From IMG/VR virus record IMGVR_UViG_3300045283_000397, positions 1 through 64,000 of that record: a stretch of DNA of 64,000 nt; one strand, given 5' to 3'. Below are positions 2,618 to 59,696 of this stretch, piece after piece; within the stretch, counting starts at the first letter, position 1, and each line of letters opens with the position of its first letter. Made by a program: the position numbers and the translations under genes. Below the pieces are notes generated by a model, which worked only from the letters and a program-made list of their open reading frames with translations, made no database searches and was not told the origin of the DNA. Source of the stretch: a virus.

Positions 2618-2634
2618 TAAGTTGCGGGACTACG

Positions 2635-7344: not shown

Positions 7345-7348
7345 ACGT

Positions 7349-32763: not shown

Positions 32764-32910
32764 GCGCGCCTATTTGCTCCTACGCAGCACCTTGCGCGCC
32801 GGCTTTTACGGCGCACGATAGCCGCCCACAGGACGGCGCTTGGGGGCCCGCGCCGCACGGTTGCGCGCGGTGGTCGTGATGATCTCGGGCAGGCCGGGCG
32901 CGCCGGGCAT

Positions 32911-33210: not shown

Positions 33211-33360
33211 CGTTTCAGCTCCCTGTCCAGTAGTGCCAAACGTAGGCGAGCAGCGGCCATCCAAATAAAACGAATAAAGTGGCCGCCGCGATGAAGGCCA
33301 GCACACCCAGCAGAAGCTCACGCAACGCGAACTTACCCGGCGGCTAGGTGCGATAGACGC

Positions 33361-34969: not shown

Positions 34970-35536
34970 CTAGGCCGCAGGTAAGCTCAACTCCTGCCGC
35001 GCCTTGCGCGGCCTCCAGTAGGGTCGCTTGGCCTTCTTCTCGCGCGGCTGGGCCGCCTCCAGCCACTCGTCGTCCATGTCGATGGGCACCTGGCGCCCCA
35101 TCATGCCCAGCAGCACGCGGCAACGCGCCTCGCCCGTGCGCGCATGCCAGATGGCTTCGAAGCCCTGGTAGGGGCCGCCGGCCACGCGCACTCTCTCGCC
35201 GGGGAGGAAGCGCTCCGCGCGCGGCGGGCGCGGGAAATCAATGATGGATTGGCGGTCGGCGCGGGCCAGCAGATCATCCATTATGGGCTGCGGCACAGTG
35301 CCTTGCACCATCGCCACGATGCCGTAGGTCTCGCGCACCTCGCGCCTAGCCGAACCCAACGGGCACCACGCGAACACATAGCGCGGGAATGAGGGGACTA
35401 GGCGCTCCTGCTTGCGGCCGCGCCGGACGCGGACCTCGAGATGGCGGAAGATGTGGAATGGCAACTGCTGGCGCGCAAGGCGCGCCGCGACCTGCGTCTC
35501 GGCGCCGGGGGCGGAGACCGCGAGCTTCCAGGTCAT
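34970..35536 (-). CDS. NusG/RfaH-like transcription antitermination factor
   Basis: NGN domain (SFPRYVF) and KOW motif (FLPGERVRVAGGPYQG...RCRVLLGMMGR). Confidence 0.82.
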   Translation of the reverse strand: MTWKLAVSAPGAETQVAARLARQQLPFHIFRHLEVRVRRGRKQERLVPSFPRYVFAWCPLGSARREVRETYGIVAMVQGTVPQPIMDDLLARADRQSIIDFPRPPRAERFLPGERVRVAGGPYQGFEAIWHARTGEARCRVLLGMMGRQVPIDMDDEWLEAAQPREKKAKRPYWRPRKARQELSLPAA

Positions 35537-35600
35537 GCGCTTTGGCCGGGGCGGTACATGCCCTAGCACCCCTAACGGGTAGCCCAGTCCGTACGCAGGC

Positions 35601-36227: not shown

Positions 36228-37790
36228 ATGCCCCTTACCCCCGCCCAGCGCCTCGCGGCCCTATTCACTGGCAACGACACGGCCCACGGCACCCACGGCG
36301 AGCCCGAGCACAACCCCACCAAGGCCAAGTGGGAGATCAAGGCCACCGCGCGCACTAAGCGGGGGGCCCCCACCATCGAACTCTGGGAGCAGCACCTCGC
36401 TGGCGACTACCCGCTCGGCATCGTTGCCATCCAGACCAACTCCACCGCGCAATGGGGCTGCATCGACATCGACGAATACCAAGACGACTTGCTGCGCCTC
36501 ATCCAACAAATAAACGTAAACCACTACCCCCTCGTCCCTTGCCGCTCCAAATCCGGCGGCCTTCACTTATTCCTCTTCCTCACCTCCCCGGCCCCGGCCA
36601 TTGCCATCATCACCCTACTGCGCGACATCGCGGCGCGCATTGGCCACGCCACGGCCGAGATCTTCCCCAAGCAAGCCCAGGTCCAGACCGAGCGCGGCGA
36701 TGTGGGCAACTGGATGATAATGCCCTACTTCGGCTCGACCTACAATAACAAGCTACGCGAGCAGGTCGGCCTCAAGCAAACCGGTGCTGAGCAAACCCTA
36801 ACCGAATTCCTCGACGTAGCCGAAGCCGCGCGCATAACCCCCGACCAGCTGCGCGCATTCTCTACCCCCGCCAACGGCCACGGGCGCGCGCGCCCGCCCA
36901 GCGGTCCATTTAGCGACGGGCCCCCCTGCCTCCAGATACTCACAGAGATCGGCTGGTCCACCAATCGCAATGAAACCCTCATGCACGCCGGGCGCTACGC
37001 TAAGCTCTCTCACCCCGATTGGAAGTCCGAGATCGCGCGCTATAATTCCGAATATTGCCGCCCCCCGCTGCCCCCCGAGGAAGTCACCACGATTGTGCGC
37101 TCGCTAGAAAAGAAAGACTATGAGTATTTTTGTAAGAAACAGCCCATGGCCAGCCATTGCAATTCCTCGCAGTGCCATGCGCGCAAATTCGGCGTAGGAC
37201 CCAGCGACGATTTCCCGCGCATAACCGCGCTGCGCAAGATAGAGGGAGCATCCCCGGTATGGTTTATGAATGTAGACGACATGGCCCTGGAGCTCTCCAC
37301 CGAGCAGATGCAGCGCTTTGACCTTTTCCAGCGAGTTGCACTGGCCGTAGGGAATCACTTCTATCCCCCGATGAAGCAGGCCGCATGGGGCCAATTACTT
37401 AATGCTGCGCTGGCCAACGTCATTATCATCGAGGCCTCGTCCGATCTCACAGCGGCCGGCATTTTTCTCGCCCATTTAGAGGACTTTCTCACCAATAAGC
37501 GCCGCGGCAAACTACGCGACGAGCTACTTTCTGGCCTCCCCTGGGAGGACGAGGACGAGCATCGCTACTACTTTTCCATGAAAGGTCTTACCACTAGCCT
37601 CAAACGCGCAGGCGTGCGCGATCACGAATTGGGCGAAACCTGGATCAGCAAGCGCATCCGCGATCTCGGCGGAGATCGCAAATTCCTCAAAATCAAGGAA
37701 AAGGGCATCAACGTATGGTGGGTACCTTCCGCCTGCGTTTCGCCCACCCCGACCCCCGATATACGCCCGCTGCCCTCAACCCCCATCTGA
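36228..37790 (+). CDS. DNA primase (AEP/prim-pol type)
   Basis: WGCIDID, RSKSGGLHLFLF, EIFPKQ, PPCLQ, and a PriCT-like RNETL...PL...EV. Confidence 0.8.
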   Translation: MPLTPAQRLAALFTGNDTAHGTHGEPEHNPTKAKWEIKATARTKRGAPTIELWEQHLAGDYPLGIVAIQTNSTAQWGCIDIDEYQDDLLRLIQQINVNHYPLVPCRSKSGGLHLFLFLTSPAPAIAIITLLRDIAARIGHATAEIFPKQAQVQTERGDVGNWMIMPYFGSTYNNKLREQVGLKQTGAEQTLTEFLDVAEAARITPDQLRAFSTPANGHGRARPPSGPFSDGPPCLQILTEIGWSTNRNETLMHAGRYAKLSHPDWKSEIARYNSEYCRPPLPPEEVTTIVRSLEKKDYEYFCKKQPMASHCNSSQCHARKFGVGPSDDFPRITALRKIEGASPVWFMNVDDMALELSTEQMQRFDLFQRVALAVGNHFYPPMKQAAWGQLLNAALANVIIIEASSDLTAAGIFLAHLEDFLTNKRRGKLRDELLSGLPWEDEDEHRYYFSMKGLTTSLKRAGVRDHELGETWISKRIRDLGGDRKFLKIKEKGINVWWVPSACVSPTPTPDIRPLPSTPI

Positions 37791-45114: not shown

Positions 45115-45837
45115 TCAAAATCCTTGGTACGAATTCTTTTGCCACCAGAGTTTATCGGGGACAAATCCCCCATCATCAGCCCATCGAAAATAATCGTTTC
45201 TCATAGCTAAACGCTGCATGGCTGCTTTTCGATTTGCTACCGTTTTAGCTGACTGCTTTTTGCCTTTTCGAGCTGCGCTTAGTTTTTTCAAATGTTCTTC
45301 AGACTGCTTCTTGCCTATGAAATGTAGTCTAGTTTTCTCAATCGCTTCTTGGGAACGCTTTCGGCCCTTTAAAGAAACCCCTTGCTTTTGTCTAGATTCC
45401 AAGGTTCTTTTGGTACCTATTTTGGCTTTTCTCATTTTCTCCCGAGTTTCAGGCCCAGGTCTAATCCCTTCATGAGCTATACTAATAAGGCGCCGAGTTT
45501 CCATCGAGAGATAACGGCCAGATTTGCTGCCGCGATAGACATTGGTGGTGCGATTATAATAGCGAACGCAAAGCTCATCGCGAGTAATCATGCTGACCCA
45601 GCGCTGCTCAATTTCCAAAAGCGCCTGGACATTCCTAATGGCTATCCGATATATTATGCGGCGCTTGAAATCTTGGGACCGTTCCCGGTACTCCTTAAGC
45701 ATGGTCCGAGAAGAACAAATATAGCCATCGTCCTCTTCACCCATGTGAGAACCGACATAGAACATTTTGCGAGAACGATCGCGCCAGATGTACACAAAAC
45801 CATAAAATTTAGGCAGTGTTCCATGCATTTTTGGCAC
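45115..45837 (-). CDS. Free-standing GIY-YIG (Seg-like) endonuclease with NUMOD3 repeats
   Basis: GFVY......MFYVGSH....DGYICSS, YYN, and ETREKMRKAK repeats; overlaps the polymerase stop. Confidence 0.85.
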   Translation of the reverse strand: MPKMHGTLPKFYGFVYIWRDRSRKMFYVGSHMGEEDDGYICSSRTMLKEYRERSQDFKRRIIYRIAIRNVQALLEIEQRWVSMITRDELCVRYYNRTTNVYRGSKSGRYLSMETRRLISIAHEGIRPGPETREKMRKAKIGTKRTLESRQKQGVSLKGRKRSQEAIEKTRLHFIGKKQSEEHLKKLSAARKGKKQSAKTVANRKAAMQRLAMRNDYFRWADDGGFVPDKLWWQKNSYQGF

Positions 45838-47779
45838 TCCCCCAATCCTTACCGAATTCAGCGTCCACCTTCATCGGCACGCGCAATTGTACTACGTCAC
45901 GCATGATCTCGGCTACTCTCAGGGCCGTTTTTTCATCGCCCACCGACACATCTATCTCGTCGTGCATCATGAGCAGCGGCGTAATTCCCTCATGCCAACA
46001 TTGGCGAAGCGCCAACTTTGCCTGAATGGCCGCGCTACCCTGGATGAGGCGATTGAGGGCCTTCTGGCAGAAAGCCCGGCGCAAGCGCTTATCGGGCCAC
46101 AACGCGCGCGCGGCGGCCAGCGGACGAGGATAAGCGTAACCGGGTTCCCCGTCGCGCCAGGCCAACTCCCACAAATCGAAGTGAGAGCGCGCCCCGTTGA
46201 GCAAACGCACCCAGCCACGGCTTTCGGCCAGCTGCTGGCAGCGCTTTGCCAATTCCTTAACGAAGGGTAATTCGCGATTGTACTGATCCAAAATGGCGCG
46301 CGCAGCTTCCTCGCTCTGGCCAATCATCATCGCGAATTTCTTCACCCCGGCCCCATAGCTGACGCCGAAGTTTGCATCCTTAGCAGGTTTGCGATCCAGC
46401 CCCGTGATCTCGGCCACATATTGATGGAAGTCGGTCTCGGGGTCCTCGCGGTAGCGCTGTGCCGCTGCGCCCGCGCCAGGGAGATCTAGTAGCTCGGCGA
46501 AGTGCACGATCAATCTGTATTCCTGCTGGCTCCAATCGAACGAGCCCCACACTTCCCCCGGCTCCGGCAGGAACGCACCGCGGAACACCGCGGCTATCTC
46601 CTCATCGCGACTGGGCGCTTGCTGCAAGGCGGGGTCGGAATAGCTGAAACGATAGGAGCGCGTGCCATCCCCTGGTTCCCCTCGGTAAGAATTCACACTG
46701 GCGTGGAGCCGTCCTCTATGGGCGTAATCTAAGATAAATCCTTTAAGAAATTTGTCGGCTGCCTCGGTCAGCTGGTCCGCTCTCGACACCAGCCGCGGCA
46801 ACCAGTGTTCATGCCCCCTCATCCAATCCTTGGTAAATGACCCCTGGCCCGTTTTGGCCGTGCGCGGGTAGCCTATGCGCTGGGAGTCATGCGCCTTCTC
46901 CAGCCAGCGCGGCGAGCGCACCTGCTCCATCCCCAGCGCCGTCACTCCCAGCTGCTCGGTCAGCTCCTTCAGCACCCCATCGCGCTTTTCCAGCAGCGCC
47001 CCCCGGCTCCGCGCCACGCCCTCCAGGTCCACCCTAATGCCGCGGCGCCGCATCTCCAGGCACATGGGCACCAAATCCATCTCCAGCCTATACGCTGCCC
47101 AGGTGCCCTCGGCCTCCAGCGTCGGCACCAGCGCGTTATAGAGCGCCAGCGTGGCCCTGGCGTCCGCCTCCGCGTACAAGCCCACGTAGCGCGCCGGCAG
47201 CCTCCACAGCGCGCCCTTTACCGCGTCGCCATGGTACCCGTAGGCAGCCGCGGCCTCCCTAAGCGCGCGCTCGTCCTTCCCCGGCAGATCGCGCCACCGG
47301 CAGAGATCGTCCAGCTGGTAGTTGAGCCGATTCTCATCGACCATCACCGCGGCGGCCAAGCTATCCTCTATGATCGAGGGAGGTTCCAGGCCCCATTGGG
47401 CGCGCTGCCACCCGAGATCGTAGTTGGCAGAATGGTACAGCCAGCGCAGCCCCCCGGCCGCGGCGTGGTGGTCGCCCAGCCAGCGCCTCACCGCGCCTTC
47501 ATCAAAATTCGCCCCCTCAGGGTGGCGCAGCGGCACGTAGATGGCCTGATCGTCCCAGGCCCAAGCTATTCCGGCTATGTGCCCGCTACGGTACGGCCAG
47601 CCCGACCCGCGCCCGGCGGCGAGCGAGTCGTCGCGCGTCTCGATGTCTTCCGCGATAATCAACTCTCCCCGGTCGCGCAGATCGGGCAATTCCGCCGGCG
47701 CCACCCACGCGGAAGGCGGCGTTATCAAGGGGAGTTGCTCTCCTCCAATGTGGACGCTTTTGGCCCGGGCGCGCGCCAT
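45809..47779 (-). CDS. DNA polymerase family A with a 3'-5' exonuclease domain
   Basis: DIETRD exonuclease I motif, RFSYSDPALQQ, DWSQQEYR (motif A), AKDANFGVSYG (motif B), HDE (motif C). Confidence 0.95.
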   Translation of the reverse strand: MARARAKSVHIGGEQLPLITPPSAWVAPAELPDLRDRGELIIAEDIETRDDSLAAGRGSGWPYRSGHIAGIAWAWDDQAIYVPLRHPEGANFDEGAVRRWLGDHHAAAGGLRWLYHSANYDLGWQRAQWGLEPPSIIEDSLAAAVMVDENRLNYQLDDLCRWRDLPGKDERALREAAAAYGYHGDAVKGALWRLPARYVGLYAEADARATLALYNALVPTLEAEGTWAAYRLEMDLVPMCLEMRRRGIRVDLEGVARSRGALLEKRDGVLKELTEQLGVTALGMEQVRSPRWLEKAHDSQRIGYPRTAKTGQGSFTKDWMRGHEHWLPRLVSRADQLTEAADKFLKGFILDYAHRGRLHASVNSYRGEPGDGTRSYRFSYSDPALQQAPSRDEEIAAVFRGAFLPEPGEVWGSFDWSQQEYRLIVHFAELLDLPGAGAAAQRYREDPETDFHQYVAEITGLDRKPAKDANFGVSYGAGVKKFAMMIGQSEEAARAILDQYNRELPFVKELAKRCQQLAESRGWVRLLNGARSHFDLWELAWRDGEPGYAYPRPLAAARALWPDKRLRRAFCQKALNRLIQGSAAIQAKLALRQCWHEGITPLLMMHDEIDVSVGDEKTALRVAEIMRDVVQLRVPMKVDAEFGKDWGSAKNAWNTA

Positions 47780-48189: not shown

Positions 48190-48963
48190 TCATGGGGCCT
48201 TGCTCAGGTGGTTCCATTTGATCATGGTGTGGCCGCTCTCGCCGTCAAGTTGCACATAGGCATCGCCATCTTGCAAGAACTCCTTGGCCACCCCGGTCCG
48301 GCCATAATAGGTATGGCCGGGGGTGGTGCACACCACCCGGTCGCCCACCTTCATATCGAAGGCACCGCCTCCGGGCACTATGTTCTGGCGCGCATGGTGG
48401 CCGCCATCTTCCGGTGTGCCCGGCCTGTTGGGCTCCTCGCGCCATTTGGCCCCGCGCCTTGCCAACTCCGCCCTTATATCGCGCGCCAGCGCGTCGCCCA
48501 CGCGCGAAAGCGGCGAGCGCCCGAGATCGATCAGTTGCGCGCGCAAGCCCGAGGTGGACCACTGATTTAGTGACTGTCTGTTGAGGGGAGGTTCCGTAGC
48601 CAGTGGCCCCGTCCTTATCACGCTGCGCGCAGCCATTTCCGCTTCCACTAAAAGCAAATAGCGCCTCAAGTCGCGCACCTCGGCCAACACGGTGCCATCC
48701 CCGCCTGTGGCGTCGGCTTCGACGGCGGCAAACACGTCGTAGCGCTCCACCGTCAAGTTGGGCTGGCCCGCGCGCGAGCGATTGAGAATGTGCGTCTCGC
48801 GCCCTAGCATATTCTCCAAGCGGTCCCACTTGCGCGCCAACATATGAAACGCGCCGCAACCACCACGCTTTTTCCAGGAACCTTGGTAAGTTTTTTCTTT
48901 TTCTTTTATATGTTCCACATCAGACTGGGCGATCGAAAATAAATAATCTAGATGGCTGGACAT
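48190..48963 (-). CDS. Nucleotide-modification-associated, alpha-helical NTP pyrophosphatase-like protein
   Basis: KEKTYQGSWKKRGG.GAF.MLARKWDRLE...DLRRYLLLVE; located in the modification cluster. Confidence 0.65.
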   Translation of the reverse strand: MSSHLDYLFSIAQSDVEHIKEKEKTYQGSWKKRGGCGAFHMLARKWDRLENMLGRETHILNRSRAGQPNLTVERYDVFAAVEADATGGDGTVLAEVRDLRRYLLLVEAEMAARSVIRTGPLATEPPLNRQSLNQWSTSGLRAQLIDLGRSPLSRVGDALARDIRAELARRGAKWREEPNRPGTPEDGGHHARQNIVPGGGAFDMKVGDRVVCTTPGHTYYGRTGVAKEFLQDGDAYVQLDGESGHTMIKWNHLSKAP

Positions 48964-49454
48964 TTAGCCCTCCTTTTCTCCCAACCTCTTTTAGCAGACT
49001 TGGACATTCTTTCTTTCACTCCTGGTAAAGCCCACCATGCAAGAATAGAAGCTTTCATCTTAGGGCGGGGGCCGGGGGGCCTCTTGATTAAACCGTCTCT
49101 TTCAGCTTTTTGTTGGTTTTGAGATCGAGTGAGGAGTTGAAGATTTCTTAGTCTACAATCTAATTTCTTATTATTTATATGATCTACCTCCATTTTAAGG
49201 GAGATAGGACCATTAAACCAAAACCAAACTAACCGATGAGTATAAACCATTTTGCCGTGATGGCGAACTTGTCCTCTACCATTAGGACCGGGGGTGTGTC
49301 CCACTCTTCTCCAGGGGCCTTTAATATGGGTAGGGCCACCCATTTGCTTACAAGTTAAAATATGACCTGATTTATTTACTCTATAAAGACCACTGGTCTT
49401 CATAATAGGAAATAAATAATCGTTTTTACCTGTGTATCTATAATTAGGCACCAT
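48948..49454 (-). CDS. HNH homing endonuclease
   Basis: HRLVW...VDHINNKKLDCRLRNLQLLT..QN; AT-rich. Confidence 0.85.
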   Translation of the reverse strand: MVPNYRYTGKNDYLFPIMKTSGLYRVNKSGHILTCKQMGGPTHIKGPWRRVGHTPGPNGRGQVRHHGKMVYTHRLVWFWFNGPISLKMEVDHINNKKLDCRLRNLQLLTRSQNQQKAERDGLIKRPPGPRPKMKASILAWWALPGVKERMSKSAKRGWEKRRAKCPAI

Positions 49455-49989
49455 CGGCCACCGCCTCCTCCAGCCTCTCGCGCTTGATTTGATAGGCAAG
49501 CAGGTTGGTGCGGATAAATTCGGGCAGCTTCATCTCCAGCAGTGTCGCGCGGCACCGCTGGGCGACCAGCGCCGCATACCTATTGCCCATGTTGATCTCA
49601 TGCAGCGCCCATTCCAGCATCTCGAGCGTCTCGGCCGCTTTGAATACCGCGCGATCCATCTCGCTCAGCACCTGCACCCCCGGCAGCTGCCAGCGCTTGG
49701 CCATCGCGCGGTGCGCCTCGTCCTCGCTCACATCCAGCGCGGCCTTGAGCAGCTTGTTGCTGCGCTTGGCGTGCCAGCTACAATCCCCTGCCCAAAGTTC
49801 TCCCACATCATGGACTAGTCCATGGACTAGCACGTGGCGCGGGCAGTCAGGCCAGATCGCCAGCAGCAGCCGCATCACCTGCCAGCTGTGTTCCCCGGTA
49901 GTCTGGCGGCTAACGTGCGGGAACACCCCGTAGCGCGGTATCTGACCAGCGCGCCGGGCGTCTAGCACGTGCTCTTCGCGCATGGTCAT
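49444..49989 (-). CDS. HD-domain 5'-deoxynucleotidase (YfbR-like)
   Basis: RY......QTTGEHSW...HDVGELWAGD. Confidence 0.8.
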   Translation of the reverse strand: MTMREEHVLDARRAGQIPRYGVFPHVSRQTTGEHSWQVMRLLLAIWPDCPRHVLVHGLVHDVGELWAGDCSWHAKRSNKLLKAALDVSEDEAHRAMAKRWQLPGVQVLSEMDRAVFKAAETLEMLEWALHEINMGNRYAALVAQRCRATLLEMKLPEFIRTNLLAYQIKRERLEEAVADGA

Positions 49990-50531
49990 GCGGGCGCCTT
50001 CGTCCTGATATTTTGCATGGCGAATTGCACGCAGCGCGCTTGATGCTTGGCATCGTCAAGGGCGTTGTGATGCATACCCTGGCGCAGAATGGATCGTGGA
50101 TCGAATTGAACGATTTCGAAAAGGGTGCGTGTGCAGCGCACATTCCAAAATTTCCAAGGCACCATGGTACCGACCGCGTGTGCCGCTGCCAGCCACAGCG
50201 GCTCATCAAAGTTGGCGCCGTGCGACCATATCTGCTCGGCCCTGGCTTCCCAGAGGAACCATTGGTGGAATTCCTTTACGACTTCGCTAAGCGCGCGCGG
50301 ATCGATTAGAAGCGCGGCTTCCGCTTCGCGCGATTGGCGTGACCACCATTCTTTGGTTGCTGTATCGACGATGAGGCCGGCTTCAAGGCAGGAAACATAG
50401 TCGATATTGCGATAGAATTCAGCACCCGTAATCTTCCCCAATGGATCGAATGCAACCGCCCCGATGGAGCGTAGCACGCACCCTGGCCGAGTGCCGTATG
50501 TTTCGAGATCGAGCATTACGTTGAGCATCAT
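49986..50531 (-). CDS. DEDD 3'-5' exonuclease
   Basis: VMLDLET, WSHGANFD, RCTRT, HNALDDA..QA. Confidence 0.8.
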   Translation of the reverse strand: MMLNVMLDLETYGTRPGCVLRSIGAVAFDPLGKITGAEFYRNIDYVSCLEAGLIVDTATKEWWSRQSREAEAALLIDPRALSEVVKEFHQWFLWEARAEQIWSHGANFDEPLWLAAAHAVGTMVPWKFWNVRCTRTLFEIVQFDPRSILRQGMHHNALDDAKHQARCVQFAMQNIRTKAPA

Positions 50532-50625
50532 ATCCTCCGCCCCGCCCACACCAGCGCCGCGACAATCGCCAGCGCTAGCGCGCCCTGGGCCGCCTGGCCC
50601 AGGTCCATATACATCGGCCCCGTCA

Positions 50626-51744
50626 TCATGACGCCACCATCTCCGGCTTGCGCATCCGGCGCTCGAACCACTCGCGGCATGCAAGGCGCCAATCCGTCGC
50701 TGCTATTTCTGTGGTAAGCGCCAAGGCTTCATTGCGGTGGCCCAACCTCCACAGCCGCATGCAGACGGCCATGGGCCAGACCGTGCGCGAGAGGAACATA
50801 TTGCGGAACCCCCAATTTGGCGCGCAAGGCTCTGGGTCAATAACGTGTAGGTCGTCCAACATTTCCATCAAGCGCATCAGCTCCCGGTCAAAGCTCTCGG
50901 GCTCGTCCACCAGCGCCATCGGCGCCACCCCGGCCGTGGCGTAGCCGTTGCCCGCTAGCGCGAGAGGCAAGCCGAGGGCGCGCAGCGCGCTGACCGGGGT
51001 GCCCTTGGGTGCGCCCGCGCGTCGCGCCAAGCGCTCCAGTTCGATCACGTAGATATGTAGGTTCCAGCTAACCATGGTCAATGTGCCCACCTGCACTCCG
51101 ATCATGGCGGCTAGGTATTCGAGCAAAATTGCAAAATGAACGGAATTCGCGCCCGCAAGCCCAAACAAAAAATCATGGCTGCGGCTGGTGGTCATCATAT
51201 GCAGCGCATCGTCACGCACGCGCAAATTTATCATGAGATTACAGGGCCTATCGCGCCACTCGCCCTTGAGATCGTTGGCACCGATGGTATACCTATCGTA
51301 GACGTCGGCAGCGGCGATATCTGATGCATCCCACATCTGGATTACGGCCTGGCGATCCCCCCGGTTACGGCGCAGCTTCTCGATGCAGACGGCTAGCTGG
51401 TCGTAGCCGAAGTGCGTCCTCCACCTTTGTCCATAGCCGCCATGGATGTTGCCGTCGGGCTCGGCAAAGCGCGCGCCGAAGTCGCTGATGTAATTGTTGA
51501 GCAGAGCCGCGTCCGAGCGCCCCGCCAGCATGGCCGCCGCCTCTATGAGGTGGAATGCAGGATTGGCATCCCTCACCGCATTGAACAGCACGCACTCGCG
51601 CGGGCGCGCATATACGGTGGCCACCGGCCCCGGCGCCACCAGCACCGGCCCGTTGCGGGACGCCTCCTGGCTCCCGTGCTGGAGCAGATAGTCCACGCCC
51701 AGGGGCAGCGCCTCGGCGACATTGACCGCGTGTATTACGTGCAC
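50626..51744 (-). CDS. Thymidylate-synthase-fold enzyme, probable dUMP hydroxymethylase
   Basis: SRNG, RDANP.FH, GGYGQRW, DRQAV, PCN, RSHD..G..GANSVHF (Asn at the dUMP-specificity position), NLHIY. Confidence 0.8.
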   Translation of the reverse strand: MHVIHAVNVAEALPLGVDYLLQHGSQEASRNGPVLVAPGPVATVYARPRECVLFNAVRDANPAFHLIEAAAMLAGRSDAALLNNYISDFGARFAEPDGNIHGGYGQRWRTHFGYDQLAVCIEKLRRNRGDRQAVIQMWDASDIAAADVYDRYTIGANDLKGEWRDRPCNLMINLRVRDDALHMMTTSRSHDFLFGLAGANSVHFAILLEYLAAMIGVQVGTLTMVSWNLHIYVIELERLARRAGAPKGTPVSALRALGLPLALAGNGYATAGVAPMALVDEPESFDRELMRLMEMLDDLHVIDPEPCAPNWGFRNMFLSRTVWPMAVCMRLWRLGHRNEALALTTEIAATDWRLACREWFERRMRKPEMVAS

Positions 51745-51959
51745 TCGCGTGTCTCCGCGCTGGGATGGGCCGTGACAAAGGCGTCGCGCTCCTCCCGGAT
51801 GGCAAAGCCCCAGGTCCTAACGCGCGTGGAGAATACGACTGAGAGGTGCTTCCCCGGCACGCGCTCGGGCCGCACCTTGGTGCTGGATGTAGCGCAGAAG
51901 GGGTAGCGGTGTTTACGCTCTTCCCAAAATGTATGTGCTTTTCCCATGGGCACTACCAT
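51735..51959 (-). CDS. Hypothetical protein
   Basis: Coupled ORF in the cluster. Confidence 0.45.
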   Translation of the reverse strand: MVVPMGKAHTFWEERKHRYPFCATSSTKVRPERVPGKHLSVVFSTRVRTWGFAIREERDAFVTAHPSAETRECT

Positions 51960-52051
51960 GGGCCCGCGCGCAGGCGCAGTAAAGCGTGGAGGCCCGCCAG
52001 CGCTAGCTGGTCGGGCCCCCTACAGTCCAGCAACTCTGTGGGGGGACGGGG

Positions 52052-52687
52052 TTACTCGACCGCGACGTATCCCTTCTCCACGTCCCAGCGCAGGCAGCCC
52101 AGCGCCACCGAGCGCCCGAGCTTCTCGCACAGCGTGGCGACCTTTATGCCGGTGCGGTAGGCGGCGAACCATTCGTGCGCCTTGGTGCCCTCGCGCTTGG
52201 GGTTGCCCTCCGCCAGAACGGTGATCTTGGCCTCGTCGCCGTAGGCCGGCGCGCGTCCGCGCCGCCCGCTTCCATTGCCTTCCTTCTTCGCCTTCTTAGC
52301 CTTGGCCATCTGGCCCTCCTTGCTTTCTGCCGGGGCCGGATATGCCTGCGGCGGTTCCTGCGGTACAGTGGGTGGCTCGGCCGGGGTCACCCGCATGGCC
52401 TCGGCTTGGTCTTGTAACACCTCTTCGCAGAGGCGCTCGGCGCGCGGGTCGGCACGCAACCTAGCCAGGCCGGGGCTAATATCGTCCCCCCCGGCGCGGC
52501 GCTGGCCCTCCTTGTGGGCCTTCATGCTGCTGGCGATGGCCGCCAGCGACTTCTCGGCGTCGCTGCGGTCCTTGAAGCAGCGCCGCTCGCGATAGTGCGT
52601 CAATCCCGCGAGTTGCGCGTCGGCAACCAAAGTGTTGTAGGCGCGCAGCATCTGCTGGATGGTCATCTCGCTATAGTCGGTCTTCAT
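52052..52687 (-). CDS. Hypothetical protein, possibly DNA-binding
   Basis: Basic linker followed by NPKREGTKAH..F..Y..G..V.....LRWD..KGY. Confidence 0.55.
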   Translation of the reverse strand: MKTDYSEMTIQQMLRAYNTLVADAQLAGLTHYRERRCFKDRSDAEKSLAAIASSMKAHKEGQRRAGGDDISPGLARLRADPRAERLCEEVLQDQAEAMRVTPAEPPTVPQEPPQAYPAPAESKEGQMAKAKKAKKEGNGSGRRGRAPAYGDEAKITVLAEGNPKREGTKAHEWFAAYRTGIKVATLCEKLGRSVALGCLRWDVEKGYVAVE

Positions 52688-52769
52688 TGCCCAGTTCTCT
52701 CCTGATAGTGGTTTATTAGTATTCAACCTCTAACCCATCTCTTGGAGAATGTAAAGGGGGTCCGCGAAA

Positions 52770-53576
52770 TTATTTTCTTCCGTCTTCGGCTGCTTTTTTC
52801 CAGGCCACGGTGACTTCGGTGCGAGTGCCGAAGCCTTCGGCGTCTGTTTTATTGGCCTTTTGGCGTAATTTTACATAACCGGGGTGAAGTTCTACTAGGC
52901 GCTGAGCGCTGGCTTCGTGCAGCGCATGGGTGCGCCAGAGCGAGCATCCCCCCGGCGCATTGGTCTGTCCCTGATCGTTGGCCCAGTAGCAGAGATTGGC
53001 ATTGCCCAGACCCGCGCGCAATAGCTGGAGCTGTACGTCGAAGTCTTCCATGACCGGGAGGCGGTCATGTTCGCAGGCCAAGAATTCCTTGGTGCGATAG
53101 ACGAGCACACGCATCACGCGCGTGTCGCGCAGCACCAAGTCCTCCGGCGTGCCCACGCCGTGCCGATTGTTGCCTTCGCGGCTGCTCACCCCTGCCGAAG
53201 CCACCTCGGCCAAGCAATCCAGCAGCGCCGCCAGCATTTGTTCCATATCACCCCAGGCCACGGGGCGCAGGTGCCAGCTCTCGTTAGATTTCCTTACAAA
53301 AAAGCGCACGTCGTCGTCCATCATCAGGAAAGCATCCTGCCCCTGGCCGCTGGCCATTTCGCCAATGATGCGTCTCTTCTCACCGATAGACCTATATCCG
53401 ATTCCTTCTACCGTCACGCCTTTAATAGAGTTATTGGCCAATTTGTTCTTGTATCGGGCGACTTCGTCTCCCGGCACGACCAATATGGTGCGCGCGCGCA
53501 GCCCTGGTCCCATATCTGCGAGCGGGCCGTGTGGGATGAGCGCGGCGCGCCCCCGGCTGGGGATGTAGATCTTCAT
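52770..53576 (-). CDS. GT-A glycosyltransferase of the TET/JBP-associated (DNA base-modifying) type
   Basis: IYIPSRGRA, MMDDD (DxD), MEDFD..LQLL..G, NAPGGCS..R, ending W.KA. Confidence 0.75.
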   Translation of the reverse strand: MKIYIPSRGRAALIPHGPLADMGPGLRARTILVVPGDEVARYKNKLANNSIKGVTVEGIGYRSIGEKRRIIGEMASGQGQDAFLMMDDDVRFFVRKSNESWHLRPVAWGDMEQMLAALLDCLAEVASAGVSSREGNNRHGVGTPEDLVLRDTRVMRVLVYRTKEFLACEHDRLPVMEDFDVQLQLLRAGLGNANLCYWANDQGQTNAPGGCSLWRTHALHEASAQRLVELHPGYVKLRQKANKTDAEGFGTRTEVTVAWKKAAEDGRK

Positions 53577-54301
53577 GATTTTCTTCGAATACGTTTACCA
53601 AGCCCTTGTTTCTTAGCTCTTCGAGAAGCTGCGGCGCGCTTCTCCGGCGTCCAAGCACTCCGTTGTTTTTCACGCGTTTCCAAGCTGGCCTTGCGCCCAG
53701 TGTTTAATATGCGTATGCGCCTGCTTTGTTCTCGACGCCGCTTAGGTGTCCATGCTGCACGCTGCTTGGCACGTGTTTCTTTACTAAACTTGATACCGCG
53801 CCTTTTCTCTCCGGCTATGGCTGCTTTAATAAGGAAACTCGCCACAGATTCTGCCGACCAAGTTTTACGGCCGAATTTACCTTTGGCGTGTTGTTTCTTA
53901 ACTCGTCGTGATCGGCGTTTTATTTCTTCGGGATCTGCTGCAATTTGCAAAGCAGCTACGCTCATTTTAATTTTTGTTTCTTCAGTATGTTTAGACCCTT
54001 TGGGGGTACCAGCATTGGGTTGGACATTTAATAAAGGGCCATCATAATTATCCAACCACCATTGTTCCCTGATGTCCAATTCGGACTCAGGGCAAAGTTC
54101 CATTATTTTATATTGCCAGTCCTTTGGATTGGTGCTGTTCCAAGCGTCTAATAATTTCTTGCTATGGTGCCATGGCCGTTTGAGCATGGCCCGATGATAT
54201 GAAAATCTGTTCTCTATCCACACTGACCCACCAATATATGCCATTTTGGTCAGCACATGGATCAGGGCATATATGCCGCAACTCTTTTTAGGCCTGGCCA
54301 T
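53573..54301 (-). CDS. Free-standing GIY-YIG endonuclease with NUMOD3 repeats
   Basis: GIY......AYIGGS...R...H; HTEETKIKMS. Confidence 0.85.
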   Translation of the reverse strand: MARPKKSCGIYALIHVLTKMAYIGGSVWIENRFSYHRAMLKRPWHHSKKLLDAWNSTNPKDWQYKIMELCPESELDIREQWWLDNYDGPLLNVQPNAGTPKGSKHTEETKIKMSVAALQIAADPEEIKRRSRRVKKQHAKGKFGRKTWSAESVASFLIKAAIAGEKRRGIKFSKETRAKQRAAWTPKRRREQSRRIRILNTGRKASLETREKQRSAWTPEKRAAASRRAKKQGLGKRIRRKS

Positions 54302-55169
54302 TCCCTTCGAAAAGGCGCTTGGGCCTCCCCTCCCCTAGTCGCACGCGCTCATATTTGTCGAATTCGCAATTTAGCGATTGACAGTCTTGACCATGAAATG
54401 GCTCGTGTAGCCATTTGCTATTTATCCAGTCTTGCAGCCTGCGCAGCTGCAAGCGCCATTCATCCTCGCGCCACGCGGCATCCTTTGGCCTATTCAAAAT
54501 CCTATTTAAGCCACGCCTGCTCCCTGGGCCACTGGCAGCGAACGTATACCAGTCCACGGCCTTGCGCAACGGCTCCACATATTTGCAGTCAGCAATTACT
54601 TGCGCGGCCATAAAGCTACCGAGCCCTTGCATCTGGCCCAGCAGCATGTGGTAACTGTTTAGACTGTCCCCCGGTTTGGGCCGCAACCTTTCTCGCCCCT
54701 GCCAGAGTGGTTGCAACACTTCCACTGTGACATACTCTGCCTTGCTCATCTTGCGCCCATTGGTGCTGACGATGTAAGCTGGCCCAAAGCACAGTTCACC
54801 ATACTCCTTGCGCCGCGCCATCACCCTCAAGAACCTCTCAGGCTCCCAAGGCACCGGCCAGCCGATCTCCGCCAGCGTCTCCGGCCAATTCACGAATCTT
54901 GCAACAACCATCCCGAACCACAAATCCTCATCCCCGGCGTAGGGCTCGCGCCAATTAACCCGGATCCATTGCGTCACAGCATCATCCTCGCGTCGAATGT
55001 TGCAAAATCTGTAAGAACGTAAGATGATGTCATCCGTCCAAGGCTTCGGCTGCCCCGCCGAGCGCCTAAGCCTGATGGCCTCGCGTTCAACGGCGAAGGC
55101 CAGGAGACGTTCGCGCGGATCGGCAATGGCGCCAATCTTAGTTTCAATCGCTGGCGCGGGCACTGCCAT
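54288..55169 (-). CDS. aGPT-pyrophosphorylase clade 1 / 5-hmdU DNA kinase helical-domain protein
   Basis: EREAIRLRR..G..KPWTDD.IL..YRFCNIRREDD, G.GSFMAAQVIAD, GPGSRRGL, CEFDKYER. Confidence 0.85.
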   Translation of the reverse strand: MAVPAPAIETKIGAIADPRERLLAFAVEREAIRLRRSAGQPKPWTDDIILRSYRFCNIRREDDAVTQWIRVNWREPYAGDEDLWFGMVVARFVNWPETLAEIGWPVPWEPERFLRVMARRKEYGELCFGPAYIVSTNGRKMSKAEYVTVEVLQPLWQGRERLRPKPGDSLNSYHMLLGQMQGLGSFMAAQVIADCKYVEPLRKAVDWYTFAASGPGSRRGLNRILNRPKDAAWREDEWRLQLRRLQDWINSKWLHEPFHGQDCQSLNCEFDKYERVRLGEGRPKRLFEGNGQA

Positions 55170-55584: not shown

Positions 55585-56856
55585 CTAGGTTTCTACTACG
55601 GGAACATATTCCTTGGGAGTAAGACCAAAAGTCCAAGCCGCCGCCTCGTGCGCCTTGGTTATTTGGGGCGGGACACGTAAAAAATAATGTTTAAAACTGC
55701 CGTCGAGTTCGCGTGTCGAGTTAACTACCTCCAGCATTACAATGGGCTCGTCGAAGGGCAGCTCGCGCCGCCAGAGCGTGCCATAATTCTCATCATAGTC
55801 TAGCCGCTTGCCCCCGGCATCGCGGATATAGGCAGCGGCGCCTTTGATTTCGGCCTTGGGCCGATACTGATCAATCATTACCCGACGGACCTCGGCATTT
55901 CGCTCCTTGTCCACAGCTTCTATGGTGATGGTTTCGGGTTTCTCGATAATTTGCGCAGGCACCCTAACGCCGTGCACCGCATAAATGGCCCAGCCATCTG
56001 GGTAAACGCAAGCCGGCCCTGTGAGTGAGTGCAGGTGACCGCGCTCATCTCGCATTAGTATGTGGTGACGCTCCGAGACCCAACAGATGTTCTGATGCGG
56101 CAAAGCCCAACCGGTACTCTGGGAGAGTTCCCACAACCCTGCCAATTTTTGAGTTTCTGCAACAAGGCCCAAAGTCTCATAAAAATAGCTATAAAAGGCT
56201 AACCAAGAAGCATCATGGGCTCCGTACACGCTGTCCCCCACGCTGGCCCACACGCTGTCCCGCACGCTGGCCCACACGCTGTCCCGCACGCTGTCCCGCA
56301 CGCTGTCCCCCACGCTGGCCCACACGCTGGCCCACACGCTGGCCCACACGCTGTCCCCCACGCTGGCCCACACGCTGTCCCGCACGCTGGCCCGCACGCT
56401 GTCCCCCACGCTGTCCCGCACGCTGTCCCGCACGCTGTCCCGCACGCTGGCCCGCACGCTGGCCCACACGCTGTCCCGCACGCTGGCCCGCACGCTGGCC
56501 CACACGCTGTCCCACACGCTGGCCCCCACGCTGGTCCCCACGCTGGTCCCCACGCTGTCCCGCACGCTGGCCCACACGCTGGTCCCCACGCTGTCCCGCA
56601 CGCTGTCCCCCACGCTGTCCCATTCCCGGTCAAGGATGATGGCCCGGGTTAACCCCTGTGAAAGCGGCGACCCACACCAAATTATCTTGCGCGGGGGTTT
56701 AAGTCCCCCTTGTCGATAAGTCTCGTAAATAGCGGCCTCGGCCCTGGGACGATTGGCCACATCAGTACAGAGTCCAATTTTGGTCCAGTGCTCTACAAAC
56801 TCGGGGAAGCGCGCAATTTGTTTGGGCGTGAGGCGCTCGATCTTAGTCCGCGACAT
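55585..56856 (-). CDS. DUF6745-like protein with an internal SV(W/R/G)(D/A/T) repeat tract
   Basis: LHSLTGPA..YPDGW.IYA.HGV.VP, NAEVRR, VVNST...DG..K.Y.LRVPP....A.EA.AWTFG. Confidence 0.8.
   Translation of the reverse strand: MSRTKIERLTPKQIARFPEFVEHWTKIGLCTDVANRPRAEAAIYETYRQGGLKPPRKIIWCGSPLSQGLTRAIILDREWDSVGDSVRDSVGTSVWASVRDSVGTSVGTSVGASVWDSVWASVRASVRDSVWASVRASVRDSVRDSVRDSVGDSVRASVRDSVWASVGDSVWASVWASVWASVGDSVRDSVRDSVWASVRDSVWASVGDSVYGAHDASWLAFYSYFYETLGLVAETQKLAGLWELSQSTGWALPHQNICWVSERHHILMRDERGHLHSLTGPACVYPDGWAIYAVHGVRVPAQIIEKPETITIEAVDKERNAEVRRVMIDQYRPKAEIKGAAAYIRDAGGKRLDYDENYGTLWRRELPFDEPIVMLEVVNSTRELDGSFKHYFLRVPPQITKAHEAAAWTFGLTPKEYVPVVET
56226..56621 (-). repeat. About 33 tandem 12-bp units AGCGTG(T/C/G)GG(GAC/GCC/ACC)
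   Basis: Directly visible cacgctg(g/t)cc periodicity on the plus strand. Confidence 0.95.
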
Positions 56857-57212: not shown

Positions 57213-58718
57213 CTATACCCAAGGACACGCTAGCTGCCCGCCCGCGGCCACCAGCGTTAACCGTTCACGCGCTCGCGTTACCGCCACGTACCAAACACGG
57301 CGCTCAGGATCAGGATTGGTCTCCATTTCCTGATGCGTCCTTTTTGCCATATCCGATAAAACGATTACGTATTCTGCTTCACTGCCCTTGGACCCGTGTA
57401 TGGTGCTGATGCGCACCCTAGGCTTGGCGCGTAGCCGCTCGCCGCGCCTGCGCATCGCCAAGATGTAGCCCACGTCCTGCTGCGGGAGGCGATCGAGCGC
57501 GACGTGCCAGATCGCGTCGACAAGCAGGCCGCCCTTCTTCTTGAGATCATCCAGCGTGACCGGGGGGGCCTGCTCGTCGAATGCGCTGAGCGATTTGTAT
57601 CCGCGCGCTACCCCGCGCCCCACGCTCATGGCCTGGTACACTGCGCGCGCTGCTTCCACCGCCACCGCGCCCCCGGCCCTTAGCCTCTCCCAGTCAGATA
57701 TTACCTGCAAGACTTCGGTGCTTACCGAAGGCTTTTCATTGCGGTGATAGTACACGCCGGCTTCGCGCAGCGCGGGCGCCACCACATCGTTGAGCACATA
57801 GGCGTTGCGCGCCAGCACCAGCACGTCCGGCCCCTCGGTCAGCCCCACGTCGAAGGCGACCTCGTGCGCCACCGCGCCCTCCGCTGCGCGCGGCGCCCAC
57901 TGCTTAGGCCTGCGGTGCGCTACTGGGGAGATGAGTGTATTGGCGAGGATCTGTACAGCGCGCGGCACGCGGTAGGATTGGCCCAGCACGCGCACGTCCC
58001 CGGCCATGTCCACTAGATGGGACGAGTCTGCTCCGGCCCATTGGAAGATTGCCTGGTCGTCATCCCCGGCCACCACGCAACGCTTGGCGCCCTGCCTGAG
58101 GCGATCGAACACATCCCACTGTAATTTCGGGAGGTCTTGACATTCATCTCCTATTAATGTCTCCAGGCGCAGCTGGAGGCCCTCCCTGAGGAATTGCTGG
58201 AGCATGTCGGTGTAGTCCATCAGCCCCCGCGCACGCTTGAATTCGCGCAACGCGCGCGCCACTCGCTCCACCTCGTGCCACGGCAGGCCATCATCAAACT
58301 GATCGAACTGCTCTCGCAGTTTGACCATCTTGATTCTTGCCAAGTTTTCCATAAAGATGATGCGGTCGCCGGGCTCGAAGCCCGCCTGGAGCCCGTCTTC
58401 CGACCACCCCCCGGTCACCCTTATGCCGGCCCAGTCGGCGAATTCCCTGGTCGCCTTGCGGTCCATCACCTCGCCCGGGCGCAGGCCCAGCAGCCGGAAG
58501 CACAAGGAGTGCAGCGTGCGGAACCAGGGCAGCTGCGCGCGCGCCAGCCCGAACTTCTCGCTCGCGCGCGTCACGGCCTCCTCGGCCGCGCGCCGCGTGA
58601 ACGAGAGGTAGGCGATGCGCTCGGGTGCCACGCCGCGCGCCAGCTCTGCGTCTACGATGTCGAGTAGCGACGTAGTCTTGCCGCAGCCGGGGGGGCCAAG
58701 GATAATCTCGGGCATCAT
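57213..58718 (-). CDS. UvrD/Rep-like superfamily 1 helicase
   Basis: GPPGCGKTT, FRTLHS, DECQD, AGDDDQAIF, STIHGSKGSE, YVAVTRA. Confidence 0.9.
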   Translation of the reverse strand: MMPEIILGPPGCGKTTSLLDIVDAELARGVAPERIAYLSFTRRAAEEAVTRASEKFGLARAQLPWFRTLHSLCFRLLGLRPGEVMDRKATREFADWAGIRVTGGWSEDGLQAGFEPGDRIIFMENLARIKMVKLREQFDQFDDGLPWHEVERVARALREFKRARGLMDYTDMLQQFLREGLQLRLETLIGDECQDLPKLQWDVFDRLRQGAKRCVVAGDDDQAIFQWAGADSSHLVDMAGDVRVLGQSYRVPRAVQILANTLISPVAHRRPKQWAPRAAEGAVAHEVAFDVGLTEGPDVLVLARNAYVLNDVVAPALREAGVYYHRNEKPSVSTEVLQVISDWERLRAGGAVAVEAARAVYQAMSVGRGVARGYKSLSAFDEQAPPVTLDDLKKKGGLLVDAIWHVALDRLPQQDVGYILAMRRRGERLRAKPRVRISTIHGSKGSEAEYVIVLSDMAKRTHQEMETNPDPERRVWYVAVTRARERLTLVAAGGQLACPWV

Positions 58719-59104
58719 GTGAATAGGCGCAAGATCATGGTTTTGGCATTTTCTAAGGTAGTGGCTTTGACGCAGGCTGGGTGGTGGCGCCAAGTGCCGA
58801 AACTGGAGCAATCGCCCGCGATAAAGACCGGGATGCCATTGGCGATGGCGATGCCTACCTCTACCAGGGCGCCACGCAACTCGTCTCCCGGTTCTGCGTA
58901 GACGATGAGCGCGCGCGAGGTTTCCACGTCGTGCTGATCTACCATCCAGAAAATATGAAAATCCTCGGGCGTAGCGGACTCTTCATGCGCGGCTTGATCG
59001 AACCAGCGCGCGTGTAGATCTATGCCATGTTGCTTCCATTCGTAGCGCAAATCACACAAGCGCGGCGCATATTTAATCTTACTGGCGATATAGACACGGA
59101 TCAT
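58715..59104 (-). CDS. Nucleoside 2-deoxyribosyltransferase-like protein
   Basis: VYIAS...D..DV......Y......RGALVEVGIA. Confidence 0.65.
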   Translation of the reverse strand: MIRVYIASKIKYAPRLCDLRYEWKQHGIDLHARWFDQAAHEESATPEDFHIFWMVDQHDVETSRALIVYAEPGDELRGALVEVGIAIANGIPVFIAGDCSSFGTWRHHPACVKATTLENAKTMILRLFT

Positions 59105-59696
59105 TGCATTTGCTCCAGCTGCTCCGCCACCGCCCTTAGCGCCGCGGCCCACTCCCCCGGCGCACCGCGCGCCAGCCGGCGCCCGAGCGAGCGCCCGGGC
59201 CATCTCTCCGGCTACGCGCGCCATCGCGTTATGGGCGCGCGCCAGCTGCTGCTCACGGTCAGTCAAGCACTTCGACGACTAGCGGGGGAAAGTGCCCGAA
59301 AATTTTGTCGAAGCCGTATTCGTACGGCTCCTCGCGCATTTGCTGTTGCAATGCGGCGATGGCGCGCTCATTGCGGCGCGGCGGCTTATATTCAGAAGTC
59401 TCGATGTCATTTTCCATAGCATGGTTCCTAGATAGAGTGCCTCCCCGGCACGCGTGGGTGAGACGGCGAGCGCGCAGCGGAACTGGGCGAACTACGGCGC
59501 GCTGGCCGGGGAGGCGCATGAAAGCCCCCCTTGGGGCTTTCATATCAGGTGTTGAGTGCCGGGCCTCGTGGGCTTCTGACTTCCCGGTTGTCGCGTTTTT
59601 GTCGCATCCCACTTGAAGCAAGTCCTTCCTTTGCCGCGTCGAACTTGCAAAGCCACAGCGTCCACCGAAGGACGGGGTCGACACGGCTTGAACCAA

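Follow-up and report, generated by a model that had tools for sequence, protein, structure and literature searches.

Here we examine a thymidine-modification gene module carried by a phage recovered in a single soil metagenome (IMG/VR record IMGVR_UViG_3300045283_000397; the window analysed is the first 64 kb of its 90,564-bp contig). The module lies at window positions 48190-55169, upstream of a family A DNA polymerase (PolA), and is predicted to join a core for replacing thymidine with 5-hydroxymethyl-2'-deoxyuridine (5-hmdU; base 5-hydroxymethyluracil, hmU) to a DNA glycosyltransferase (GT). We consider the chance somewhat better than even that the two together would yield a base-J-like glycosyl-hmU directly, without the participation of a kinase. 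The combination of genes exceeds chance by far, the co-directional set recurring in 70-77 of 80 independent viral contigs that carry a relative of the GT.

The source contig possesses direct terminal repeats and is rated 100% complete by CheckV, and blastn against phage genomes returned just short patches of 66-73% identity. Pfam and PHROG scans place the modification genes and PolA in one co-directional, closely packed minus-strand operon. All six genes that a first-pass annotation, made from the letters of the window alone, had named upstream of PolA are present on that strand, and their coordinates are exact. These six, together with PolA, are as follows:

54288-55169, minus strand: Pplase1, a clade 1 aGPT-Pplase (Pfam HMUDK_hel) of 293 aa (PF18723 3.4e-37; phrog_2396 7.8e-54)
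52770-53576, minus strand: TAGT-family GT-A glycosyltransferase (PF20691 1.6e-17; phrog_842 2.8e-38)
50626-51744, minus strand: thymidylate synthase (TS)-fold enzyme, a predicted dUMP hydroxymethylase (phrog_5131 1.6e-81, full length; PF00303 6.5e-19)
49986-50684, minus strand: DnaQ-like 3'-5' exonuclease (Rv2179c-like), a replication gene (PF16473 1.4e-44; phrog_255 2.4e-48)
49444-49989, minus strand: HD-domain YfbR-like 5'-deoxynucleotidase (PF12917 7.1e-9; phrog_6047 1.8e-26)
48190-48963, minus strand: 257-aa protein with a helical N-domain (residues 1-115) and a small beta-rich C-terminal part (AlphaFold2 (AF2) model, conserved N-domain)
45809-47779, minus strand: PolA, at the downstream end of the module (PF00476 4.7e-36)

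From upstream to downstream, and with the intervening genes described further below, the order is DUF6745 protein, Pplase1, GIY-YIG gene, GT, 224-aa protein, 74-aa open reading frame (ORF), TS-fold enzyme, exonuclease, HD nucleotidase, HNH gene, 257-aa protein, two small ORFs and PolA. The polymerase is 32% identical to those of phages M6 and PhiJL001, and occupies an equal relative position in both.

When the TS-fold enzyme is aligned to solved thymidylate synthases, Cys168 (motif PCN) is the catalytic Cys, RSHD is the RSxD phosphate loop, and Asn200 (GANS) falls on the dUMP-specifying Asn (TS N177 position), which bears out the dUMP-type Asn read in the first-pass annotation. A wider alignment of 83 sequences comprised 76 TS-like enzymes from GT loci (including that of locus L052, described below) and those of this phage, M6, PhiJL001, LuckyBarnes, MW202897, T2 (td) and T4 (gp42). 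Both Cys and Asn are kept in all 81 phage-module enzymes, and also in T2 td, while gp42, a dCMP hydroxymethylase, has Asp at or next to the Asn column; the module enzymes have the motif PCN, and T2 td has PCH. Retention of this Cys and Asn throughout the module enzymes indicates that the hydroxymethyl base available is hmU rather than 5-hydroxymethylcytosine (hmC). Over its full length the enzyme shares 36-37% identity with those of M6 and PhiJL001, and it groups with the M6 enzyme; the modified bases of M6 derive from 5-hmdU (PMC5889632). From these sequence relationships we infer that it makes 5-hm-dUMP.

The GT matches PF20691 over the entire profile (64.6 bits with a cut-off of 27.5; positions 1-205 of 205), and a six-frame search with PF20691 (65 bits) finds a single TAGT copy in the whole genome. 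Database searches returned 331 homologues, and among 32 of these with 46-65% identity the residues D87-D88-D89 (DXD), E177, D178 and D180 are invariant, indicating selection on the family to remain an active GT-A. The protein is 40% identical to gp22 of PhiJL001. Enzymes of the TAGT GT-A type are documented to add sugar to hydroxymethyl-pyrimidines of phage DNA and are similar to the base-J GT (Pyle et al., bioRxiv 10.1101/2023.12.21.572611), and we predict that this member is a DNA 5-hydroxymethyluracil glycosyltransferase.

An M6-type decorating branch, consisting of a P-loop 5-hmdU kinase (5-HMUDK, PF18748), an amino-acid:DNA transferase (AADT, PF18724) and their tailoring enzymes, was sought in the complete genome. 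No 5-HMUDK was found in six frames at E<=10; as a positive control, the M6 kinase was detected at 1.1e-19 (M6 kinase and transferase match PF18748 and PF18724, respectively). Similarly, PF18724 revealed no AADT in the complete genome and tblastn with the M6 AADT gave noise only, tblastn with the M6 kinase, pyridoxal-phosphate (PLP) and radical-SAM proteins gave no match to the genome, and Pfam scans of ORFs of at least 116 aa contained no tailoring family of the PLP decarboxylase, radical-SAM isomerase, FAD lyase or acetyltransferase type. Credible Walker A motifs in the genome are confined to two UvrD helicases, other matches being spurious and none occurring in small ORFs. The complete genome likewise contains no TET/JBP dioxygenase (PF12851) and no cytosine methyltransferase/TET route, which, in combination with the dUMP-type Asn, implies that the acceptor of the GT should be hmU. 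With no such kinase in the complete genome, nothing here would account enzymatically for a phosphorylated intermediate. The first-pass annotation had reported neither AADT, PLP or radical-SAM enzymes nor a separate P-loop kinase in the window; this holds, and extends to the complete 90.5-kb genome, and the search for transferases in the remainder of the genome that it had proposed has now been run, with no AADT (PF18724, tblastn) and a single TAGT GT as the outcome.

Conservation of the module was assessed in two sets of loci: (i) 80 IMG/VR loci carrying the GT, taken from an alignment-based scan (a single GT protein query found none; IMG/VR holds at least 96 GT relatives), and (ii) the 80 viral loci closest to Pplase1 out of at least 592 viral contigs, with neighbours counted within 10 kb. 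A TS-like gene is present in 77 of the 80 GT loci and Pplase1 in 70, always on the strand of the GT; in the 54 loci flanked by 5 kb or more on either side, the corresponding numbers are 51 and 49. In 39 of the 70 loci with Pplase1, no more than 300 bp lie between it and the GT. Further members are found less uniformly, namely PolA (59/80), the HD gene (34/80), the N-domain of the 257-aa protein (26/80) and a domain resembling PhiJL001 gp18 (25/80). Kinase and AADT of the M6 type occur together in one GT locus of 80 (L052), a count taken from tblastn, as PF18748 run over the records of 50 relatives gave 0 matches and was weighed as weak.

The 80 Pplase1 loci display a different balance, with a TS-like gene in 61 (often directly adjacent, following Pplase1), a GT in 19, a kinase in 17 and an AADT in 8. 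These counts make Pplase1 a member of the 5-hmdU core, with GT and kinase/AADT as alternative decorating branches. The pairing of a kinase-family protein with the GT, which the first pass had put forward, gives way to another: the true pairing is that of the GT with the hydroxymethylase, and Pplase1 is the constant companion of the hydroxymethylase, its main travelling partner being the TS-like gene. Some 25 of the 80 loci (L091, L100, L104, L105, L107, L112, L129, L133 and others) have the TS-like gene directly after Pplase1 but lack both GT and kinase; this suggests either hmU left undecorated or a third decoration yet to be discovered.

Two observations stand beside these counts. Locus L052 (L052:4555-10831, IMGVR_UViG_3300020576_001247) has a hybrid row of AADT, a 266-aa ORF of unknown function, a divergent kinase, Pplase1, a GT relative and a TS-like gene, and in its phage thymidine may be subject to amino-acid transfer as well as glycosylation. 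Five contigs of 220-500 kb (L128, L139, L158, L164 and L166) carry Pplase1 relatives of 44-48% identity and no TS-like gene in the vicinity; they may represent jumbo phages, or cellular DNA that was taken for viral, and bacterial homologues of Pplase1 have been noted earlier (Lee et al. 2018, PMC5889632).

The idea that the module is peculiar to this phage is rejected by the shared gene set of the GT loci and by cultured phages. PhiJL001, sequenced in 2005, encodes Pplase1 (gp19), GT (gp22, annotated as a glucosyl transferase), TS-like enzyme (gp24), HD protein (gp25) and PolA in the order seen here, while in Brevibacterium phage LuckyBarnes a TS-like enzyme, a pair of TAGT GTs and Pplase1 are encoded next to one another (gp38-gp41). 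GT, hydroxymethylase and HD genes also occur in Manatee Spring virus MW202897. A kinase was searched for in these three genomes and none was found. The module occurs in alphaproteobacterial and actinobacterial phages.

The proposed pathway would operate in two phases. Before replication, the TS-fold enzyme would hydroxymethylate dUMP to 5-hm-dUMP, while the HD nucleotidase, perhaps with the MazG-like domain of the 257-aa protein, would reduce the dTMP/dTTP pool. The HD protein is homologous to M6 CDS0050 and PhiJL001 gp25, which share its position, and its depletion of dTMP/dTTP is suggested by analogy, a dTTPase being known from phage 15599 (PMC13458397). PolA would then insert 5-hmdU instead of T. 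After replication, the TAGT GT-A would move a sugar from a host nucleoside diphosphate (NDP)-sugar onto the 5-hydroxymethyl group in DNA, giving a base-J-like 5-(glycosyloxymethyl)uracil with no phosphorylation step. The likely role of such a base would be to shield the DNA against restriction enzymes and other nucleases.

Several points weigh against this pathway. What the two enzymes do, which sugar is used and what the base is for are all inferred, and sequence fails to separate hydroxymethylase from methylase activity. Literature searches found no base composition for phages with this module, and no measured glycosyl-hmU in phage DNA. Profile detection of the kinase is imperfect, given that PF18748 missed the divergent L052 kinase that tblastn found. 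One TAGT member, the T2/T6 beta-glucosyl-HMC alpha-glucosyltransferase, glycosylates a sugar and not a base (PMC13390438), so the first acceptor could be something other than hmU. Finally, a simple GT model gives the near-obligatory Pplase1, with its conserved Cys-Glu, no job.

Pplase1 begins at an ATG at 55169 (gene call P0121), with an alternative start upstream at 55229, and covers positions 7-277 of the 281 in PF18723 (128.8 bits, cut-off 25); a large protein database contains 2152 homologues, every one with PF18723. The first-pass annotation had labelled it a 5-hmdU-kinase-family protein, a label that does not survive: the ORF has no Walker A or other nucleotide-binding motif, and Pplase1 is a helix-hairpin-helix (HhH) glycosylase-like, AADT-fold protein and not a kinase. 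The Pfam name of PF18723 stems from SP10 gp186, the sole kinase fusion (PMC5889632, Table 3), and the domain is tabulated as clade 1 "alpha-glutamyl/putrescinyl thymine pyrophosphorylase", apart from the P-loop kinase (Lee 2018, PMC5889632, Table 3; PMC8989533). The accessible literature assigns no reaction to aGPT-Pplase clade 1. The AF2 model (pLDDT 94.8) has as its best PDB match the AADT of PaMx11, a 5-phosphomethyl-2'-deoxyuridine (5-PmdU) glycinyltransferase (8z2n_B; Z 11.1, root-mean-square deviation 4.1, 226 aa), followed by HhH glycosylases (OGG/AGOG, EndoIII, AlkA, MutY) and a queuine-salvage enzyme at Z 7-10; Foldseek alone ranks the matches to AADT and HhH glycosylases weakly. PDB sequence searches with Pplase1 (protein and profile), with the GT and with the 257-aa profile gave noise only.

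In 17 long metagenomic proteins (P0244-P0260), PF18723 is fused to PolA, to PriCT/Prim-Pol/DnaB-like primase-helicases, to Toprim, to VirE or to Dam, and none of the 17 joins it to a GT or TS. The fusions to replication domains suggest that the domain works at the replisome on newly made DNA, where Pplase1 would probably act on 5-hmdU DNA. Complex prediction for GT with Pplase1 scored 0.44, compared with 0.37 for a control, an outcome that speaks neither for nor against a complex.

The most serious competitor to direct glycosylation, to which we would give perhaps one chance in several, is that Pplase1 is the first transferase of the pathway: an AADT-like Cys would attack C6 of 5-hmdU, in the absence of phosphorylation, to form an exocyclic methylene that takes up an unknown nucleophile, and the GT would glycosylate the adduct or the remaining hmU, resulting in a new hypermodified thymine and not plain base J. 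The fold common to Pplase1 and AADT (8z2n_B) is in its favour, as are residues invariant among 37 homologues on the C-terminal helix, which include Gln261, Cys268-Glu269 and Lys272; a short motif at Cys268 aligns locally with the catalytic-Cys region of the M6 AADT. The spacing of Pplase1 to the GT and their shared strand also fit, the loci that have Pplase1 and TS-like genes with no GT or kinase hint that Pplase1 acts on hmU alone, and some TAGT enzymes target an existing substituent, not the base (PMC13390438). However, a profile-profile comparison (hhalign) of the Pplase1 alignment against a two-sequence AADT alignment gave no significant match, so that the Cys equivalence is tentative, its support being limited to the fold, the position and a weak motif in local alignment. 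The Glu-Thr metal ligands that precede the Cys in AADT (residue roles in PMC8989533 and PMC13458397) are Gln-Asn/Ser in Pplase1, a hydroxyl is a poor leaving group, the PolA and primase fusions suggest a general replisome role, and the M6 intermediate could be formed in vitro without the clade 1 protein M6 gp55 (PMC8989533). In a broader form, which we hold to be comparably improbable, Pplase1 would be a kinase-independent, replisome-coupled, Cys-dependent enzyme on nascent 5-hmdU that builds, with the TAGT GT, a thymine derivative other than plain base J, such as an adduct that is glycosylated on a linker put in place by Pplase1.

The same fold and fusions admit a second explanation, an unlikely one in our estimation, in which Pplase1 stands outside the modification chemistry as a replisome-coupled DNA glycosylase or base-surveillance factor (e.g. 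removing misincorporated U/T from hmU DNA, or attacking T-containing host DNA) and the GT still glycosylates hmU. The HhH glycosylase-like matches agree with this, the PolA, primase-helicase and Toprim fusions parallel the fusions of uracil-DNA glycosylase (UDG) to PolA in T-modified phages (PMC13697223), and Pplase1 is coupled to the TS-like gene whatever decorating enzyme is present. Nonetheless, its invariant Cys-Glu differs from the Asp/Lys typical of HhH glycosylases, and its top structural match is a transferase, not a glycosylase.

A third explanation, for which we see little prospect, leaves the DNA unglycosylated, with the TS-like enzyme acting as an ordinary thymidylate synthase or producing undecorated hmU, and with the GT directed at another target (a virion protein, the envelope of the host, a small molecule), possibly in concert with sugar genes of the head operon. 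Those genes form a sugar island in the structural region (window 1140-10514 and 25143-26399; genome 86643-87503, L002:6643-7503), with a member of the histidine-phosphatase superfamily encoded immediately on the other side of the contig ends, and by Pfam encode UDP-galactopyranose mutase (GLF), an NAD epimerase/dehydratase, two GT9 proteins (one TPR-fused), a DUF5672 protein and an NDP-hexose C-methyltransferase. This separate island puts protein or glycan glycosylation within the repertoire of the phage, and a methylase and a hydroxymethylase are indistinguishable by sequence. In contrast, the GT sits within the nucleotide/replication operon and co-occurs with the TS-like gene in nearly all GT loci, and the TS-like enzyme has PCN, not the PCH of T2 td, and groups with the enzyme of M6, which makes T derivatives from 5-hmdU (PMC5889632). 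GLF was searched for in 50 module-bearing relatives (27 at least 90% complete) and found in none, and its absence there indicates that the DNA GT is independent of the island. The DNA GT presumably uses a host NDP-sugar and the island probably serves virion or other glycosylation, while cross-talk between the two is possible in this particular phage.

Least probable is a phospho-glycosylated 5-hmdU, made by phosphorylation followed by transfer of a sugar or sugar-phosphate, which has the Pfam name of PF18723 to recommend it, together with the phosphate-containing sugar adducts on uracil derivatives that SP-15 shows in nature (PMC5977210), and which is opposed by the lack of a P-loop kinase or other kinase-like ORF in the complete genome, by the glycosylase fold and missing nucleotide-binding motif of the PF18723 domain, and by the absence of a kinase from 79 of 80 GT loci. 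While the first-pass interpretation of the genes as a thymidine-modification cluster is upheld by the dUMP-type TS-fold core in a genome devoid of kinase and AADT, its phospho-glycosylated option drops out for want of a P-loop kinase in the genome, and a base-J-like glycosyl-5-hmdU is the most economical product.

Among established systems, the module resembles the hypermodification systems of M6, YuA, ViI, PhiW-14 and SH-Ab 15599 in its core of clade 1 Pplase, TS-like enzyme and HD protein, arranged in the same order beside PolA, and in that 5-hmdU would be installed at replication and decorated on the polymer. It differs in that 5-HMUDK, AADT, PLP and radical-SAM enzymes are missing and a TAGT GT takes the decorating role, with an O-glycoside expected as product and not an amino-acid or polyamine adduct. 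In M6 no gene fills the GT slot; immediately upstream of its core of Pplase1, TS-like enzyme, HD protein and PolA lie the genes for kinase, AADT, PLP and radical-SAM enzymes.

Glycosylation of hmC in phages (alpha/beta-GT of T-even phages; the TAGT-type second glucosyltransferase of T2/T6; TET-associated GT-A of Burke 2021 and Pyle 2024) is similar with respect to a PF20691/phrog_842 GT with DXD, and to a TS-fold-made hydroxymethyl-pyrimidine that is glycosylated post-replication. The present phage has a dUMP-type Asn in place of the dCMP-type Asp and neither a cytosine methyltransferase nor a TET route, and the hmC systems lack a counterpart of the near-constant Pplase1 seen here. Many GT-A contigs next to ThyS genes have already been counted (Pyle et al., bioRxiv 10.1101/2023.12.21.572611), and GTs beside phage T-dioxygenases have been reported (PMC13229309). 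SP-15/YerA41-type phages, with glycosylated thymidine and UDG-PolA fusions (PMC13697223), have in common with this system sugar-bearing T derivatives, here predicted, and a glycosylase-fold domain coupled to PolA, as in the Pplase1-PolA fusions; however, SP-15 sugars are carried on a dihydroxypentyl linker, the fused domain is a family-1-type UDG and not an HhH Pplase, and this phage has no fusion. The equivalent genes of PhiJL001 (gp18-gp28) and LuckyBarnes (gp38-gp41) reside in genomes of about 50-64 kb, as opposed to 90.5 kb, their module proteins are 29-40% identical to those described here, and this phage additionally has two homing endonucleases inside the module and the unrelated sugar island.

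The base J system of kinetoplastids consists of a thymidine hydroxylase (JBP1/2) and the glucosyltransferase JGT. The likeness lies in the predicted product, a glycosyloxymethyl-uracil in DNA, and in a GT-A fold related to JGT (bioRxiv 10.1101/2023.12.21.572611). In this phage hmU would instead arise from a nucleotide-level hydroxymethylase, with genome-wide replacement of T as opposed to site-specific oxidation of T in DNA, and there is no JBP/TET dioxygenase.

The 257-aa protein corresponds to the alpha-helical pyrophosphatase-like protein of the first-pass annotation. The protein and its helical N-domain are there and the pyrophosphatase label is plausible, although the MazG-type matches are weak. 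The N-domain is a confidently modelled helical bundle (AF2) that, where conserved in GT loci, sits between the HD gene and PolA, and its residues Y26, S29, W30, G34, G35, R44, D47, R48, D98 and E107 are invariant. Its best PDB matches are MazG, RS21-C6 dCTPase and HisE (Z 6.3-7.3), with unrelated helical proteins scoring alike; Foldseek with the model gave no match, and the protein has no Pfam match, no PDB profile match and no hhalign match to the T4 gp56 dCTPase. An atlas lead to DUF1599 (0.83) was discarded, PF07659 not being detected. The N-domain is possibly a MazG-like NTP pyrophosphohydrolase. A further candidate for pool control is a 183-aa ORF at 58715-59266, overlapping the start of the second UvrD-like helicase, with a sub-threshold nucleoside 2-deoxyribosyltransferase-like match (22 bits, cut-off 28.8) that the PHROG scan does not support; if real, it could be a dNMP hydrolase.

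The remaining genes in and beside the operon, where the GIY-YIG, HNH, 224-aa and 74-aa entries add to the first-pass annotation, are:

55585-56856, directly upstream of Pplase1: DUF6745 protein, 423 aa (DUF6745 3e-54)
53573-54301, minus strand: GIY-YIG/NUMOD3 homing endonuclease (phrog_314 3e-14; weak GIY-YIG and NUMOD3 Pfam matches)
52052-52726, minus strand: 224-aa protein with no family, its C-terminal ~70 aa homologous to PhiJL001 gp18
51735-51959, minus strand: 74-aa ORF with no family match, included for its operon position only
48948-49499, minus strand: HNH homing endonuclease, an insertion (PF13392 4.1e-15; phrog_99 1.7e-19)

Neither the 224-aa nor the 74-aa protein belongs to a Pfam or PHROG family, and the atlas has no useful lead for the former. 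The 224-aa protein matches PhiJL001 gp18 by tblastn (7.6e-9) and has a basic, low-complexity middle part; relatives of the gp18-like domain usually lie just upstream of Pplase1 in GT loci. The GIY-YIG gene between Pplase1 and GT is an insertion, considering the short gap between these two in 39 of 70 relatives. Homing-endonuclease-type genes are spread across the replication and modification genes, those at 45115-45837 and 31881-33260 (NUMOD3) adding to the GIY-YIG/NUMOD3 and HNH genes listed above, and local GC dips to 0.55-0.57 around them. The DUF6745 protein consists, at residues ~80-205, of tandem degenerate decapeptides (SVRDSVWASV-like), with DUF6745 at the C-terminus; as no homologue was present in 160 related loci, it is outside the conserved module.

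Elsewhere in the genome, the regulatory/early region encodes a TnpB/Cas12f-like protein (OrfB_IS605 and TNB; 33774-34892), a NusG-like protein (34970-35569) and a protein with an AEP-TOTE-type primase domain (36228-37790). A 442-aa protein at genome 80878-82206 (L001:16878-18206) combines TROVE (Ro60-like, 5e-12) and VWA domains, a Ro-like RNA-binding module in a phage.

If glycosylation of hmU takes place as proposed, base-J-like glycosyl-hydroxymethyluracil would be a common genome-wide base in environmental phages and not a kinetoplastid curiosity. It would affect restriction, CRISPR and sequencing behaviour, and the enzymes responsible could be new tools for hmU labelling. The clade 1 aGPT-Pplase family gains a sharper context, with the hydroxymethylase as its constant partner, fusions to polymerases and primases, and GT or kinase/AADT as interchangeable add-ons. 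Should Pplase1 prove to be a Cys-dependent enzyme on 5-hmdU, it would supply a missing activity common to the surveyed 5-hmdU phages and establish a third way of hypermodifying thymidine, next to those through kinase/AADT and through a dioxygenase. Cultured LuckyBarnes and PhiJL001, with their equivalent genes, make the question directly testable.

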